Virus record (IMG/VR): IMGVR_UViG_2698536355_000008
Direction: 5' to 3' (one strand)
Length of the DNA stretch: 7,297 nt
Source: a virus
Lineage: Duplodnaviria > Heunggongvirae > Uroviricota > Caudoviricetes
The notes beneath the pieces were generated by a model. It saw only the letters and a program-made list of their open reading frames with translations. It was not told the origin of the DNA and did not search any database. Shown piece by piece: positions 96 to 7,297 of this stretch; the first letter of the stretch is position 1; each line of letters starts with the position of its first letter. The position numbers were made by a program, and so were the translations under genes.

Positions 96-287
96 TTGAC
101 GCTTACAAATCTTGTTAGTCATTACCGCATTATGTGTTTGCGAAAGAATGGGGCTGCGTTAATTAATTTTGTGGATGCTCGGGTCACGGACGGATTTATC
201 TTGCGCGAAGGTGAGTTTGTCACTTCATTACAGGCATTGAAAGAGATCGGAATAAAAGCTGGCTTTTCTGCTTTTTCAGGAGAATAA
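96..287 (+). CDS. Hypothetical small ORF (63 aa from TTG at 96, 52 aa from the first ATG at 132); no recognisable family
   Basis: Open frame in the six-frame track. No convincing Shine-Dalgarno before either start. No similarity I can recognise. It sits where hokD/relE would lie in K-12 Qin by my recall, but it does not resemble Hok. Confidence 0.2.
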   Translation: MTLTNLVSHYRIMCLRKNGAALINFVDARVTDGFILREGEFVTSLQALKEIGIKAGFSAFSGE

Positions 288-353
288 ACTCATCTACAAT
301 CTTGCGCGGGGCTGAACTCCCGCTGAGTAACACCGTGCCACCGGAGAAAACCG

Positions 354-632
354 ATGGCACGCAACGCAAAATATTACAATTCTGATAATTCGCCCGTTCT
401 TGCCTGCACGCACGGGCGGTATTCTCACGCATTCAAGTCTGAATGGTTCCAGCACCCTCCATGCACTGCAGAACAGGCCGAATGGCTGATTCATTCTTAC
501 CGCAGGCGCGGGTTCGAGGTTAAGAAAGCTCTCAGTCTCGACTATCGGCACTGGATAATCTCTGTCAGGCTGCCTTATTCCGAACGCCCACCACGTGCGT
601 CCCGCACTTTCCAGCAACGGATCTGGAGGTAA
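354..632 (+). CDS. Hypothetical 92-aa protein, translationally coupled to the downstream DUF968 gene
   Basis: ATG at 354 is preceded by GGAGA at 343-347 (6-nt spacing). Its TAA stop at 630-632 lies inside the GGAGG Shine-Dalgarno of the next gene and 1 nt before that gene's GTG at 634. It occupies the position that rem holds in Qin, but I cannot confirm identity with Rem. Confidence 0.5.
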   Translation: MARNAKYYNSDNSPVLACTHGRYSHAFKSEWFQHPPCTAEQAEWLIHSYRRRGFEVKKALSLDYRHWIISVRLPYSERPPRASRTFQQRIWR

Positions 633-633
633 C

Positions 634-1683
634 GTGCGGGTATTACTTAGACCTGTTCTGGTGCCTGAGCTTGGGCTGGTGGTCCTTAAGCCGGGCCGTG
701 AATCCATACAGATATTTCATAATCCTCGAGTGCTGGTGGAACCGGAACCAAAAAGCATGCGTAATCTGCCATCCGGAGTCGTTCCTGCCGTTCGCCAGCC
801 GCTGGCGGAAGACAAAACATTGCTGCCGTTTTTTAGTAACGAACGGGTGATTCGTGCTGCTGGCGGCGTTGGCGCATTGTCCGACTGGCTATTACGTCAT
901 GTTACATCCTGCCAGTGGCCTAATGGCGATTACCATCACACTGAAACAGTCATTCACCGTTATGGTACCGGCGCAATGGTGTTGTGCTGGCACTGCGACA
1001 ACCAACTGCGTGACCAGACATCGGAATCACTGGAGCTGCTTGCTCAACAAAATCTGACAGCATGGGTGATTGACGTCATCCGTCACGCAATAAGCGGTAC
1101 GCAGGAGCGGGAATTATCTTTGGCTGAATTATCCTGGTGGGCGGTCTGCAATCAGGTGGTGGATGCACTACCTGAGGCTGTATCGCGTCGTTCGCTGGGA
1201 TTACCAGCGGAAAAAATCTGCTCGGTGTACCGCGAAAGCGACATCGTACCGGGAGAGCAGACCGCCACCAGCATATTGAAACAACGCACAAAAAATCTTG
1301 CACCGTTGCCTTACGCCCACCAGCAACAAAAATCACCACAGGAAAAGACGGTGGTAAGCATCACCGTTGATCCAGAGTCTCCGGAATCTTTCATGAAGCT
1401 GCCTAAACGTCGCCGCTGGGTTAAGGAGAAATACACACGTTGGGTTAAGACACAGCCGTGTGCTTGCTGCGGTATGCCAGCCGACGATCCGCATCATCTG
1501 ATTGGTCACGGGCAGGGCGGAATGGGAACAAAAGCACATGATCTCTTTGTGTTGCCTTTGTGCAGAAAGCATCACAACGAGCTGCATACGGATACAGTGG
1601 CATTTGAAGATAAGTATGGCTCCCAACTGGAGCTGATATTTCGTTTTATCGATCGCGCGCTGGCAATTGGCGTACTGGCGTAA
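634..1683 (+). CDS. ydfU: DUF968-family prophage protein (YdfU-like) with a Cys/His-rich, HNH-like C-terminal motif
   Basis: Long ORF in the track (595..1683). GTG at 634 is in frame and preceded by GGAGG at 625-629, giving 349 aa, which matches my recollection of YdfU length. The C-terminus contains CACCG...DPHH...LCRKHHNELH. It lies immediately upstream of the Q gene, as in Qin. Confidence 0.75.
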   Translation: MRVLLRPVLVPELGLVVLKPGRESIQIFHNPRVLVEPEPKSMRNLPSGVVPAVRQPLAEDKTLLPFFSNERVIRAAGGVGALSDWLLRHVTSCQWPNGDYHHTETVIHRYGTGAMVLCWHCDNQLRDQTSESLELLAQQNLTAWVIDVIRHAISGTQERELSLAELSWWAVCNQVVDALPEAVSRRSLGLPAEKICSVYRESDIVPGEQTATSILKQRTKNLAPLPYAHQQQKSPQEKTVVSITVDPESPESFMKLPKRRRWVKEKYTRWVKTQPCACCGMPADDPHHLIGHGQGGMGTKAHDLFVLPLCRKHHNELHTDTVAFEDKYGSQLELIFRFIDRALAIGVLA

Positions 1684-1696
1684 GTGGAGAACGAGC

Positions 1697-2449
1697 ATGA
1701 ACCTTGAAGCCTTACCAAAATATTACTCCCCAAAATCTCCAAAATTGAGCGATGACGCTCCAGCGACAGGCACCGGTTGTTTAACAATTACGGATGTAAT
1801 GGCAGCGCAGGGGATGGTGCAGTCGAAAGCACCACTTGGGTTGGCCTTATTTCTGGCAAAAGTTGGTGTTCAGGACCCTCAGTTTGCGATTGAAGGCCTG
1901 CTAAATTACGCGATGGCACTGGATAACCCGACATTGAACAAATTGAGTGAAGAAATCCGGTTACAGATTATTCCTTACCTCGTGAGTTTTGCCTTTGCTG
2001 ATTACTCCAGGTCTGCGGCAAGTAAGGCTCGCTGTGAGCATTGTTCAGGTACGGGATTTTATAATGTATTGCGCGAAGTGGTGAAACACTACAGACGCGG
2101 GGAATCTGTAATCAAGGAAGAATGGGTGAAGGAACTATGTCAGCATTGCCATGGTAAGGGCGAAGCCAGCACAGCGTGCAGAGGGTGTAAGGGTAAAGGG
2201 ATTGTTCTGGATGAAAAAAGAACCCGGTTTCATGGCGTACCGGTATATAAGATTTGTGGGCGTTGTAATGGAAACCGGTTTAGTCGTTTACCGACCACGC
2301 TGGCACGACGTCATGTCCAGAAGCTGGTACCAGACCTGACCGATTATCAGTGGTATAAGGGGTATGCGGACGTCATTGGTAAACTGGTAACAAAGTGCTG
2401 GCAGGAAGAAGCATACGCGGAAGCGCAATTGAGGAAGGTGACGAGATAA
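1697..2449 (+). CDS. quuQ: Late-gene antitermination protein Q (QuuQ-like)
   Basis: ATG at 1697 with GGAGAA at 1685-1690 gives 250 aa (the track ORF from 1667 is 260 aa). The protein has four CxxCxG-type motifs (CEHCSGTG, CQHCHGKG, CRGCKGKG, CGRCNGN). Position upstream of the lysis genes fits a Q antiterminator. Family assignment is from memory. Confidence 0.8.
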   Translation: MNLEALPKYYSPKSPKLSDDAPATGTGCLTITDVMAAQGMVQSKAPLGLALFLAKVGVQDPQFAIEGLLNYAMALDNPTLNKLSEEIRLQIIPYLVSFAFADYSRSAASKARCEHCSGTGFYNVLREVVKHYRRGESVIKEEWVKELCQHCHGKGEASTACRGCKGKGIVLDEKRTRFHGVPVYKICGRCNGNRFSRLPTTLARRHVQKLVPDLTDYQWYKGYADVIGKLVTKCWQEEAYAEAQLRKVTR

Positions 2450-2480
2450 ATGATTTTTGCTGAAGATGGCGACATGATGT

Positions 2481-2509
2481 TTGCATTTTTCAAAAAATAT
2501 GGATAAAAT
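2481..2509 (+). promoter_or_regulatory. Candidate sigma70 late promoter (PR'-like) just downstream of Q
   Basis: TTGCAT (2481-2486), 17-nt spacer, TAAAAT (2504-2509), beginning 32 nt after the quuQ stop. This matches the lambda arrangement in which PR' follows Q. Predicted start site near 2516. Confidence 0.4.
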
Positions 2510-2554
2510 TTTTTCAACGATGGGCTTTGTATACCCGACGTTAAGAAAAAGTAG

Positions 2555-2585
2555 AAAACCCGCTGATGAGCGGGTTTTGTGCTTT
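2555..2585. terminator. Intrinsic terminator (tR'-like), probably bidirectional
   Basis: Stem AACCCGC (2557-2563), loop TGATGA, stem GCGGGTT (2570-2576), then a T-run TTTTGTGCTTT. An A-run on the 5' side gives a T-run on the opposite strand. It lies about 40-70 nt downstream of the candidate late promoter. Confidence 0.6.
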
Positions 2586-2870
2586 AAATGGGGCAATGGT
2601 AATGTTGAATCTCATCCCGGGACTCATGTCTGTTAACTTATTATTTAGCTGGTGACTTGGTTATTTGCCTGATGTTTAAAATGTTTTCTTCCAGTACAAT
2701 GTCCCTAAACACAATGAGTCTGCTTATTATATTATTAGCAGAGCTATTACGGCCAAAGTACAGCATAAGCTTTTAAAGCCAATCAACCAGTCATCAAGAC
2801 AGACGGGGTTATTCATAAAAACTCTCCATGTGTGATCCGATGGGGCCTGAAATTAAAGCTTTAATATAGC

Positions 2871-3083
2871 TCATGAAAGGTAAACATTGGCAGCTGAAGG
2901 GCCACGCAGACCATTTATCCGGCAAAATTCCACGCGTAATCCGGTGGTAATTTCTTCTGCATCGCGGAGATTGAGCGCTGAAACATGAAGCTGGACATCG
3001 ATACGACCATCGGATGGGGTGATAAGACCCTTGCCGCTTTTGCCGTCAAAGGTTTTGACAATTCCTGTCATTTTACGGGACAA
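2871..3083 (-). CDS. cspF: Cold-shock-domain protein, CspF/CspH subfamily
   Basis: 70-aa product [26 protein letters not shown]...[10 protein letters not shown] matches the CspF/CspH subfamily from memory. The first codon is TTG at 3081-3083, with TAAGGAA upstream on the minus strand. It is divergent from cspB, as in Qin. Confidence 0.85.
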
Positions 3084-3187
3084 AAAAATTCCTTAATACT
3101 GATAACTTGGCGCACTATACACACGTTCCTGAAGAAAGCTATAGTTTTTTGATGGGGTTGAAGATGGCTGGATGTCTAAAATAAACA

Positions 3188-3216
3188 TTGCTTCATATGT
3201 TCAACTATGCGTTAAT
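3188..3216 (+). promoter_or_regulatory. cspB promoter (CspA-like architecture)
   Basis: TTGCTT (3188-3193), 17-nt spacer, GTTAAT (3211-3216), followed by GGTTTGA at 3226. This parallels the cspA promoter and start region (CTTAAT ... ACGGTTTGACG) as I recall it. Confidence 0.55.
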
Positions 3217-3223
3217 GATTGCG

Positions 3224-3383
3224 TCGGTTTGAAGAACAGACGATATACGAAGTAGTTTACTAAAGCAGTTCTCATTTCAGGTGTTATTCACTTATTCCTT
3301 CTTTGAGTCTCTCCAATTAAGTACGAAGTCGTTTCTGTTATGCAAACCATTTATGCCGAAAGGCTCAAGTTAAGGAATGTAGA
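3224..3383 (+). promoter_or_regulatory. cspB long 5' untranslated leader with cold-box-like and upstream-box elements
   Basis: About 160 nt lie between the predicted start site and the ATG. GGTTTGAAGAACAGACGATATACG (3226-3249) resembles the cspA cold box. GCCGAAAGGC (3355-3364) is identical to the conserved element in the cspA leader. Confidence 0.55.
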
Positions 3384-3599
3384 ATGTCAAATAAAATGAC
3401 TGGTTTAGTAAAATGGTTTAACGCTGATAAAGGTTTCGGCTTTATTTCTCCTGTTGATGGTAGTAAAGATGTGTTTGTGCATTTTTCTGCGATTCAGAAT
3501 GATAATTATCGAACCTTATTTGAAGGTCAAAAGGTTACCTTCTCTATAGAGAGTGGTGCTAAAGGTCCTGCAGCAGCAAATGTCATCATTACTGATTAA
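3384..3599 (+). CDS. cspB: Major cold-shock protein CspB
   Basis: 71-aa product [38 protein letters not shown]... carries the RNP1-like (KGFGFI) and RNP2-like (VFVHF) motifs. Shine-Dalgarno TAAGGAA precedes the ATG at 3384. Confidence 0.9.
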
Positions 3600-3880
3600 A
3601 ATTCATCGCTCGTCTGTATACGATAACGAAGAAGGCTGATGCCTGAGTAGAGATACGGACAGAGTAGTGAATATTGGATCTCTTTAATAAAAAGTAAGGA
3701 GGTCCAATACATGAAACAATGGCTAGCATATTTGGCAAAATCTTAATCAGGAAAAGTATGCTAACCATTGTGGTGAAGTGCAGGTTTGCTGCATGAATAG
3801 TTTTACAGCAGAAGCTAACTGCTGGCATGGCAAAACAAAGTGCGTAAGTGGATGACTCCCACAAAAAGCACCACAATCTC

Positions 3881-3906
3881 AAACCCGCTCAGGCGGGTTT
3901 TTTATT
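3881..3906. terminator. Intrinsic terminator, bidirectional, shared by the convergent cspB region and ynfU
   Basis: Stem AAACCCGC (3881-3888), loop TCAG, stem GCGGGTTT (3893-3900), then a T-run. An A-run precedes it. It lies 57 nt beyond the ynfU stop on the minus strand and about 280 nt beyond the cspB stop on the plus strand. Confidence 0.7.
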
Positions 3907-3962
3907 ATCTGCTTTAAATATATTATTAAAATATAAAAAATACTTGTTACTAATAAAATCAA

Positions 3963-4133
3963 TCAGGCTACAGCTTTAAGATTTGTCTGGAATACTTTGT
4001 TGCAATGAGGGCAGATCAAAAGGGCACCTTTTTGTACTCTTGAAAAACTGTGTTCTGACTCTTGGGTGCAGTTTGGGCAGGAACATTTAACGAGATAATT
4101 ACGGCGTGATTTTGAGTTTTTACGTTCTGACAT
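3963..4133 (-). CDS. ynfU: Small zinc-ribbon protein (YnfU-like, 56 aa)
   Basis: Taking the internal Met of the 73-aa track ORF gives MSERKNSKSRRNYLVKCSCPNCTQESEHSFSRVQKGALLICPHCNKVFQTNLKAVA. It has two Cys pairs (CxCxxC and CxxC) and a basic N-terminus. The 56-aa length and location match my recollection of Qin YnfU. Confidence 0.6.
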   Translation of the reverse strand: MSERKNSKSRRNYLVKCSCPNCTQESEHSFSRVQKGALLICPHCNKVFQTNLKAVA

Positions 4134-4352
4134 AGGCTTTTCCTGTATAAATGGCCGTATACAGTACACTAAATATGAAAACATTTCTCGTATTATTATT
4201 TTATATATGACTTTCTTTCAAAATAATTACCCACATTTTTAATGTGTATGTTTTTTTAGCGCCGTTGAGAACAACGTGTGCTGTCAAAACTACCCCGTAG
4301 ACTCCGATCTTTTCAAACATATTGCACCATCCGTGTACATCGGGGTGAGGAT

Positions 4353-4568
4353 ATGAAATCAATGGATAAGTTAACAACAGGTGTTGCCTATGGCACATCG
4401 GCGGGTAATGCTGGTTTCTGGGCATTGCAGTTACTCGATAAAGTAACTCCGTCACAGTGGGCTGCAATCGGTGTGCTGGGTAGCCTGGTTTTTGGCCTGC
4501 TGACGTATCTGACAAATCTTTATTTCAAGATTAAAGAAGACAGGCGTAAGGCTGCGAGAGGAGAGTAA
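4353..4568 (+). CDS. essQ: Class II holin / pinholin (S21-like) with dual-start motif
   Basis: 71-aa product beginning MKSMDK, with Met1 and Met4 as in phage 21 S (S71 antiholin, S68 holin). Two hydrophobic segments. GGTGAGG lies upstream of the ATG at 4353. It is immediately upstream of an endolysin. Confidence 0.85.
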
Positions 4569-4572
4569 TCCA

Positions 4573-4880
4573 ATGACTCAAGACTATGAACTGGTTGTGA
4601 AAGGAGTCCGTAATTTTGAGAATAAAGTTACGGTAACTGTAGCCTTACAGGACAAAGAACGCTTTGACGGTGAAATTTTTGACCTGGATGTCGCCATGGA
4701 CCGTGTTGAAGGAGCTGCGCTGGAGTTTTATGAGGCAGCAGCCAGAAGGAGCGTCCGGCAAGTCTTCCTGGAAGTAGCAGAAAAATTGTCAGAAAAAGTT
4801 GAGTCTTATCTGCAGCATCAGTACTCCTTTAAGATTGAAAATCCTGCCAATAAGCACGAGCGTCCTCATCATAAATATCT

Positions 4881-4884
<4 letters not shown>
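4573..4884 (+). CDS. ydfR: DUF1327-family protein of unknown function (YdfR-like), inserted between holin and endolysin
   Basis: 103-aa ORF. Its ATG at 4573 is 4 nt after the essQ stop, and its stop overlaps the rrrQ start (ATGA at 4881-4884). Position and length match Qin YdfR from memory. Confidence 0.7.
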
Positions 4885-5908
<1,024 letters not shown>

Positions 5909-6090
5909 GGTAATATTAAATCGGAACATTTACATCGCGGAATGTAAAATTTAAATAAAAAGGACTCTTCCATGAGCCAAAATTCCTGAAATCTTAAGGG
6001 TAAGATAAAAGGTCTTAATCAGAATGACACGTTTTATTAATAAATAAAGCCATTCTTTCATTGCTGTGTTTTTCTTTACAAAAGTAATCC

Positions 6091-6119
6091 TTGCTATGGG
6101 TGGTTAATCATGCGTTAAT
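6091..6119 (+). promoter_or_regulatory. cspI promoter (CspA-like) with long AT-rich leader
   Basis: TTGCTA (6091-6096), 17-nt spacer, GTTAAT (6114-6119), followed by GGTTTG at 6128-6133, the same arrangement as upstream of cspB. The leader to the ATG at 6271 is about 145 nt. Confidence 0.45.
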
Positions 6120-6270
6120 GGTGTTCTGGTTTGTTACAAATTTATCTGAAGCAGTCATTGTTATAATTTTATTATTTGTACCTCTTGAGATTTCCTTGTT
6201 GGTTTTTCTCTCTGATATTTTTTTTCGGACCATTCTGCCCAAGGGCTAATTTCTTCAAAAGGTAATAATT

Positions 6271-6483
6271 ATGTCTAACAAAATGACTGGTTTAGTGAAA
6301 TGGTTTAACCCTGAAAAAGGTTTTGGTTTCATCACGCCGAAAGATGGCAGCAAAGATGTGTTTGTCCATTTCTCAGCAATTCAGAGCAACGATTTCAAAA
6401 CATTAACTGAGAATCAGGAAGTTGAATTTGGTATTGAGAACGGACCTAAAGGTCCTGCCGCTGTTCATGTAGTGGCGCTTTGA
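6271..6483 (+). CDS. cspI: Cold-shock protein CspI
   Basis: 70-aa product [38 protein letters not shown]... with the cold-shock-domain RNP motifs. Its position after the spanin genes matches Qin. Confidence 0.9.
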
Positions 6484-6571
6484 GGTAGACAATATTACAA
6501 ACCATATTCACTTTAGATGCCCGTGTTGTCATGGTTCCCAGTATAGAACATCATCTTTTGATGTTTCTGAC

Positions 6572-6682
6572 ATGAATCCTTTCGGGGCAAAATGTATCTT
6601 TTGTAAATCAATGATGATTACATTTGATAATATTTCACAATACTTAAATGCCAGCCGTCTGTCGTTGGATTTAAAAAAGTGA
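6572..6682 (+). CDS. Small zinc-ribbon-like ORF downstream of cspI; 36 aa from the only ATG, but the Cys motif extends upstream (see findings)
   Basis: The frame is open from 6479 to the TGA at 6680-6682 and encodes ...RCPCCHGSQYRTSSFDVSDMNPFGAKCIFCKSMM.... The only in-frame ATG (6572) lies after the first Cys cluster. An intrinsic terminator follows 6 nt after the stop. Confidence 0.3.
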   Translation: MNPFGAKCIFCKSMMITFDNISQYLNASRLSLDLKK

Positions 6683-6687
6683 AAATG

Positions 6688-6711
6688 AAGGCTCCTTCGG
6701 GAGCTTTTTTG
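6688..6711 (+). terminator. Intrinsic terminator ending the cspI transcription unit
   Basis: Stem GGCTCC (6690-6695), loop TTCG, stem GGAGCT (6700-6705), then TTTTTT (6705-6710). Confidence 0.65.
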
Positions 6712-6829
6712 CTTGGTGTCTATTCGATGGATACTCACATACTACGGTAACATCATGAAAAAAATCATAGTTTTTTTTAACTCTGAACCAGCAGTGGTAG
6801 TGCCAGCGATGACTGGAGTTAACACCATC

Positions 6830-6985
6830 ATGCGTGAATATCCAAATGGCGAAAAAACACACCTTACTGTAATGGCCGCAGGGTTTCCATCTCTGACCGG
6901 AGATCATAAAGTCATTTATGTAGCCGCGGATCGACATGTTACTTCAGAAGAAATTCTGGAAGCAGCAATAAGGCTCTTGAGTTGA
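6830..6985 (+). CDS. ynfN: Small hypothetical protein (YnfN-like, 51 aa; an in-frame upstream ATG at 6755 would give 76 aa)
   Basis: MREYPNGEKTHLTVMAAGFPSLTGDHKVIYVAADRHVTSEEILEAAIRLLS, with GGAG at 6815-6818 upstream of the ATG at 6830. The 51-aa length and position after cspI match Qin ynfN from memory. The protein sequence itself is not verified. Confidence 0.45.
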   Translation: MREYPNGEKTHLTVMAAGFPSLTGDHKVIYVAADRHVTSEEILEAAIRLLS

Positions 6986-7153
6986 TTTGATGCTATTGCA
7001 TTGATAATTCAGGAAAATTCTCTTTGTCTGTTTGTGTAAAATTTAGACTATCGTATGTTGATTATTGCGATGTTTCATCTTATCTTTTACACGTTTGCAC
7101 CATATAATCGACTTACTGTGTAACTGGAAAGTCATAACAGACTAAAAGAGGAA

Positions 7154-7175
7154 ATGATGAATATTGAAAACTTAA
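7154..7175 (+). pseudogene. gnsB: 5' fragment of a gnsB-like gene truncated by an IS5 insertion
   Basis: AAAGAGGA Shine-Dalgarno (7144-7151) followed by ATG ATG AAT ATT GAA AAC TTA (M-M-N-I-E-N-L). This resembles the GnsA/GnsB N-terminus MNIEELKK as I recall it. The frame runs straight into the IS5 terminal repeat at 7176 and stops after 7 IS-encoded codons. Confidence 0.4.
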
Positions 7176-7297
7176 GGAAGGTGCGAACAAGTTCCTGATA
7201 TGAGATCATCATATTCATCCGGAGCGCATCCCAGAGGGACATCATGAGCCATCAACTCACCTTCGCCGATAGTGAATTCAGCACTAAGCGCCGTCAG
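7176..7297 (+). mobile_element. IS5-family insertion sequence, left end (partial; continues beyond the window)
   Basis: Terminal inverted repeat GGAAGGTGCGAACAAG at 7176-7191, immediately preceded by TTAA (7172-7175), which fits the IS5 YTAR target. The transposase N-terminus follows. Confidence 0.85.
7244..7297 (+). CDS. insH: IS5 transposase (InsH-like), N-terminal 18 codons, truncated by the window edge
   Basis: ATG at 7244 encodes MSHQLTFADSEFSTKRRQ, matching the IS5 transposase N-terminus from memory. Confidence 0.85.
   Translation, partial: MSHQLTFADSEFSTKRRQ

Follow-up and report, generated by a model that had tools for sequence, protein, structure and literature searches.

The gnsB gene of the Escherichia coli Qin cryptic prophage, as identified from its sequence, is interrupted by an insertion sequence of the IS5 family, ISKpn26, in the 7,297-nucleotide stretch of DNA analyzed here (hereafter the window). 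The left junction of this insertion lies within the window, and the full element, the duplication of its TTAA target and the remainder of gnsB are present in an independent complete genome, that of strain SCPM-O-B-12142. A simple insertion of ISKpn26 at the gnsB TTAA, with probable loss of GnsB, is the best explanation overall and can be held with considerable confidence. Events of this kind are textbook IS insertions, and a public complete genome already contains this one in annotated form.

According to this explanation, a complete 1196-bp ISKpn26 would have entered the Qin gnsB gene by transposition, in the orientation of that gene, at the TTAA formed by codon 6 together with the first base of codon 7, and the four target bases would have been duplicated upon insertion. 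The insertion puts 1.2 kb between the gnsB promoter, Shine-Dalgarno sequence and codons 1-6 on one side and the other 51 codons on the other, and the upstream remnant codes only for a peptide of 13-14 amino acids. The most likely outcome would be that GnsB is lost or strongly reduced, and transcription starting at the gnsB promoter would run into the transposase gene.

The Qin segment and the left junction

Judged from its open reading frames and from the annotation of matching records, the window is a segment of the E. coli Qin cryptic prophage, with the gene order rem', ydfU, ydfT/quuQ, cspF, cspB, ynfU, essD, ydfR, rrrQ, rzpQ, cspI, ynfQ, ynfR, ynfN, and gnsB', where the prime marks the two interrupted genes at its ends. 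Positions 107-7297 are 100% identical to the chromosome of SCPM-O-B-12142 (NZ_CP144928.1; the extracted locus is called L001 below). This 7-kb Qin allele occurs at 100% identity across many unrelated strains, so that identity over the segment alone is no proof of common descent with SCPM-O-B-12142, and an assignment to its lineage on these grounds was rejected.

At the opposite end of the window, positions 1-106 correspond to the last 106 bases of the IS66-family element ISEc23, terminating in ...GACGCTTAC, which is inserted 71 nt into rem (junction 106/107). This ISEc23/rem junction occurred neither in SCPM-O-B-12142 nor in any other of the 5,426 complete E. coli genomes searched; the extra ISEc23 in rem means that the source genome of the window differs from SCPM-O-B-12142. 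The window is bounded by 106 and 122 bases, respectively, of two multicopy IS elements and is probably an entire short-read contig broken at repeats. Within it, Rfam searches placed cspA-type thermoregulator elements on the plus strand at 3223-3615, spanning cspB (159 bits), and at 6125-6510, spanning cspI (113 bits); no such element was reported by Rfam for the divergent cspF gene. The ynfN gene, at 6755-6985, is an intact 76-codon open reading frame both here and in most strains; one record of K-12 MG1655 (NZ_CP032667.1), whose match is one base shorter, lists it as frameshifted. No Pfam family was found for its product.

The left junction reads ...gactAAAGAGGAaATGATGAATATTGAAAACTTAA|GGAAGGTGCGAACAAGTTCCTGATATGAGATCATC.... 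The native gnsB Shine-Dalgarno sequence, AAAGAGGA, is found on the plus strand at 7145-7152 by direct reading, with a predicted duplex of -6.0 kcal/mol with the 3' end of 16S rRNA, and is followed by a run with two in-frame ATG codons, at 7154 and 7157, that continues through the TTAA (ATGATGAATATTGAAAACTTAA, plus strand, 7154-7175). The TTAA itself (7172-7175) is the left copy of a 4-bp target-site duplication, since the same tetranucleotide occurs at both ends of the element in SCPM-O-B-12142 (L001 8183-8186 and 9383-9386), and the IS begins at 7176. A preliminary description of this DNA, made from the sequence alone, had reported the Shine-Dalgarno sequence, the ATG run, the TTAA and a terminal repeat starting at 7176, and every one of these elements was recovered at those positions.

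The RefSeq start of K-12 gnsB corresponds to the second ATG, at window position 7157 (MNIENL..., 57 amino acids). The 5' fragment of gnsB therefore occupies 7157-7175 on the plus strand and is 100% identical to K-12, comprising codons 1-6 (MNIENL) and one base of codon 7; with this start, the break falls after codon 6 (Leu, TTA) plus that single base. The preliminary description placed the break after about seven codons, a count that holds from the first ATG (7154), where it falls after codon 7 plus one base, but is one codon too long from the annotated start. Translation from 7154 runs out of gnsB into the inverted repeat of the IS and gives the truncated fusion frame MMNIENLRKVRTSS* (plus strand, 7154-7198), closed by a TGA stop codon at 7196-7198. 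K-12 and hundreds of other E. coli genomes match the region upstream of gnsB together with the first 19 nt of the gene (window 6990-7175) at 100% identity.

Tetranucleotides of the YTAR type (CTAA, CTAG, TTAA, and TTAG) account for only 1.1% of the positions in the window, and because of this rarity the presence of an IS end directly adjoining a TTAA is what target specificity would lead one to expect, rather than a coincidence. The proposal that TTAA served as an IS5-type target is further borne out by its presence on both sides of the element in L001 and by its agreement with the YTAR consensus. The GC content is 24% within 50 bp on each side of the insertion site, compared with 44% for the whole window. 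IS5 prefers AT-rich targets (PMC11677980), and the insertion site in gnsB fits this preference.

The ISKpn26 element and its other copies

The window contains the first 122 bases of the element (7176-7297, plus strand), corresponding to its transposase-proximal end. They are 100% identical to L001 8187-8308, which belongs to an element whose gene is annotated by PGAP as 'IS5-like element ISKpn26 family transposase'. The terminus is formed by a 16-bp inverted repeat, GGAAGGTGCGAACAAG (7176-7191), and the terminal repeats, which begin with GGAAGGTGCGAA, are imperfect, with 15 of 16 positions matching the reverse complement of the other end in L001. A core of the IS5-type transposase promoter, PIS, is predicted on the plus strand at 7181-7209, with a -35 hexamer GTGCGA (7181-7186), a 17-nt spacer and a -10 hexamer GATCAT (7204-7209), and the first 18 codons of the DDE transposase (MSHQLTFADSEFSTKRRQ...) occupy 7244-7297 on the same strand.

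The complete copy in L001 extends over 8187-9382 (1196 bp). Its transposase gene (L001 8255-9235, corresponding to IS positions 69-1049) encodes a 326-amino acid protein (WP_000019473.1) that matches Pfam families DDE_Tnp_1 (PF01609, E=1.7e-35) and, at its N-terminus, DUF772 (PF05598, E=3.2e-21), both above the gathering scores. The ISKpn26 reference element is also 1196 bp long and has a single 326-aa transposase reading frame at 69-1049 (PMC8796155); the copy in gnsB is equal to it in both length and reading frame, shows no structural difference and differs only in its target. ISKpn26 has become known mainly through its disruption of mgrB and of capsule loci in Klebsiella pneumoniae.

The preliminary description had named the element IS5. 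This was right as to the family and in taking the repeat for a true IS terminus, but canonical IS5 in the strict sense was rejected. When compared with the IS5A copy of K-12 MG1655 (IS5A/insH1; NC_000913.3), the element has the same family, organization, terminal GGAAGGTGCGAA repeats, 4-bp target type and PIS hexamers, whereas its length is 1196 bp instead of 1195 bp and its full-length nucleotide identity is 92.2% over 1198 aligned columns. By the ISfinder convention, elements with less than about 95% nucleotide identity are considered different IS. Copies of ISKpn26 with at least 99% identity occur widely in E. coli, both on chromosomes and on plasmids. The assignment of the element to ISKpn26 is thus based on its naming by PGAP, on its matching architecture and on this identity of at least 99% to many annotated ISKpn26 copies.

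Identical 4-bp duplications were found at four other ISKpn26 copies, namely CTAG (L003), TTAG (L006), CTAA (L007), and CTTG (L005), and a fifth copy (L009) is flanked by TTAG with a 1-nt ambiguity; in this small sample the duplications thus lie mostly at YTAR targets. The flanks at L008 are imperfect (TTAG / ATAG). The CTTG copy, in NZ_CP122315.1 (L005 57-60 and 1257-1260), lies within an Ail/Lom gene and has a clean, non-canonical duplication outside the YTAR consensus. The K-12 IS5A copy in CP4-6 (NC_000913.3, L004 2956-4150) is flanked by TTAT / GGAG, without a target-site duplication, and this mismatch suggests a later rearrangement at that copy.

The only other record covering at least 80% of the query is that of strain CH4804 (NZ_CM166344.1), and it carries an insertion different from that of the window: an independent ISKpn26 (L003 3339-4542) whose CTAG target, duplicated on either side of the element, overlaps the stop codon of gnsB. 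Downstream of it, CH4804 has SLATT and SMODS (CBASS-like) genes in place of ydfO.

In all ISKpn26 copies, a reading frame annotated as 'hypothetical protein' starts at one fixed position close to the stop codon of the transposase gene and leaves the element, so that its C-terminus is specific to each site (L001 9217-9414, L003 4373-4552, L005 1091-1316, L007 1091-1282, and L008 1091-1279). It gave no Pfam match.

The complete allele and alternative explanations

A left junction identical to that of the window was found in one of the 5,426 complete genomes, SCPM-O-B-12142 (NZ_CP144928.1, 100% match), and there were no matches in the metagenome contigs searched. In this genome the element ends in ...CTTATTCGCACCTTCC, followed by TTAA and then by AAACAAAAGCAGAAGCAGATATTTCTG..., which is the K-12 gnsB sequence after its TTAA; the remainder of gnsB, AAACAAAAGCAGAAG..., is the in-frame continuation of K-12 gnsB. 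K-12, which lacks the insertion, has an uninterrupted gnsB, and its empty site is identical to L001 with the insertion removed. The other IS end, the TTAA duplication and the rest of gnsB, all anticipated by the preliminary description, have thus been observed, albeit in a relative, as the window itself reaches no further than 122 bases into the element. Under a simple insertion, the right junction in the window's own genome would read CTTATTCGCACCTTCC-TTAA-AAACAAAAGCAGAAGC, that is, the distal ISKpn26 end followed by TTAAAAACAAAAGCAG.

The interrupted gene had been described as gnsB-like, from a resemblance of its N-terminus to the Gns family, and this resemblance proved to be real. The restored 57-aa protein (MNIENLKTKAEADISEY...) covers the Pfam GnsAB profile (PF08178) from end to end (positions 1-54 of 54, E~3e-35; 3.1e-35) and shows similarity to GnsA of known structure (4XO1 and 4XO2; E=5e-20). 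The gene lies between ynfN and ydfO in Qin, in the same order in L001 and in K-12 (L002). The 5' fragment and the region upstream of it show 100% identity to K-12 gnsB, of which gnsA is a paralogue; what sets the gene apart here is that the IS splits it. By sequence and position, the interrupted gene is gnsB (ydfY) itself and not merely a gnsB-like gene.

Since a single junction is visible in the window, the IS might instead mark a rearrangement in the window's own genome, whereby recombination between two ISKpn26 copies deleted or inverted the flanking DNA and left the remainder of gnsB no longer adjacent. Substrates for such IS-IS recombination exist, as eight places in the reference genome match the query, and some copies are devoid of matching duplications, as at L008 (TTAG / ATAG) and at the K-12 IS5A (TTAT / GGAG). 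However, the complete genome having this same junction shows a clean insertion with a duplicated TTAA, and the protein encoded across the right junction (see below) was recorded, with its exact sequence, on 12 contigs represented in a large protein collection, which places the simple-insertion allele in more than one assembly; a rearrangement is accordingly very improbable. Still more remote, to the point of being hardly credible, is that the junction is an assembly artefact, a chimeric contig end formed at a repeat. The window has 106 bases of ISEc23 at its start and 122 bases of ISKpn26 at its end, the pattern of short-read contig breaks, but contig ends of this kind normally reflect true junctions, the junction shows a correct inverted-repeat terminus next to a canonical target site, and the identical junction is present in an independently assembled complete genome.

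A third alternative accepts the insertion and concerns the fate of the gene. An ATG located at the distal end of the element, 24 nt inside the IS, is in frame with gnsB and opens a 60-aa chimera (L001 9359-9541; peptide start MTCLFAPSLKTK...), in which MTCLFAPS, encoded by eight codons from the ISKpn26 inverted repeat, replaces MNIEN and is followed by GnsB residues 6-57 (LKTKAEAD...). The insertion would then remodel gnsB rather than abolish it, with read-through from the gnsB or the transposase promoter and the distal ATG yielding a functional 60-aa GnsB. Consistent with this, the chimera retains positions 5-54 of the 54 in PF08178 (E~1e-31; 1.2e-31) and is called by PGAP a 'GnsA/GnsB family addiction module toxin' (WP_053883937.1); its exact sequence recurs on the 12 contigs mentioned above; no terminator-like site was found on the plus strand from the stop codon of the transposase gene to the end of the element; and transcription from the transposase promoter region of IS5 crosses the whole element and drives the downstream fucAO operon (PMC11894529). 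The chimeric ATG, however, has a weak Shine-Dalgarno match, of -4.2 as against -6.0 kcal/mol for the native one, at a distance of just 2-4 nt from the ATG, and a score of -4.0 kcal/mol or better is reached by 36% of all ATGs in the window. An in-frame ATG arises with a chance of about one in three and so needs no special explanation, and gene callers report any open frame with similarity to a family. A functional remodelled GnsB is for these reasons distinctly unlikely, and the chimera is probably for the most part a product of annotation.

The simple insertion with probable loss of GnsB is thus preferred. The statement in the preliminary description that the insertion inactivates gnsB agrees with the separation of promoter, Shine-Dalgarno sequence and codons 1-6 from the rest of the gene, but inactivation should be called likely rather than certain, as the in-frame chimera keeps 52 of the 57 residues.

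Consequences for GnsB, adjacent genes and the transposase

Overexpression of gnsA or gnsB is reported to raise the unsaturated fatty-acid content and to suppress the defects of fabA6(Ts) and secG-null mutants (Sugai et al. 2001). The insertion probably knocks out a non-essential prophage gene which, when overexpressed, is tied to unsaturated fatty-acid content. GnsA-YmcE is listed in the literature as a type II toxin-antitoxin pair; for GnsB, 'addiction module toxin' is a family annotation name, and the protein is a putative toxin. In the output of annotation pipelines, the IS-gene chimera passes for an intact GnsA/GnsB 'toxin', which conceals the disruption. The gnsB::ISKpn26 allele is a strain-level marker: it occurs in one of the 5,426 complete E. 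coli genomes, and its right-junction protein is on 12 contigs.

It had also been suggested that the IS end could alter the expression of neighboring prophage genes. This is not favored by the gene arrangement: gnsB closes the run of co-directional genes, carries an intrinsic terminator of its own (L001 9568-9589) and faces ydfO and ynfO, which are convergent with it, and because of this terminator and the convergent genes, polar or activating effects on the neighbors were rejected as unlikely. A scan for consensus sigma-70 promoters on both strands of L001 7990-9700 yielded no promoter-like site. As the native gnsB promoter escaped the scan too, this is a weak negative, and to this extent there is no support for a sigma-70 promoter, outward or hybrid, at the junction between the IS and the gnsB remainder.

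The -35 and -10 elements of PIS were defined experimentally for IS5 (PMC11894529); the hexamers are conserved in the window copy, and the gnsB promoter lies directly upstream. Since ISKpn26 and gnsB point in the same direction, the transposase gene may be transcribed from the gnsB promoter. The IS5 copy nested in nmpC, in prophage DLP12 of K-12, has the same geometry, with an IS5-type element inside a prophage gene, co-oriented with it and preceded by a host promoter, and there the host promoter makes the copy the main transposition donor (PMC11677980). The donor role was demonstrated for the nmpC copy, whereas for ISKpn26 in gnsB the parallel is hypothetical. By this analogy, transcription from the gnsB promoter could make the copy a hyperactive 'master' donor in its lineage, and read-through could also give an N-terminally remodelled GnsB; both together are an unlikely, speculative extension of the simple insertion. 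If ISKpn26 is expanding in the lineage, the co-oriented, promoter-proximal copy in gnsB would be a candidate driver.
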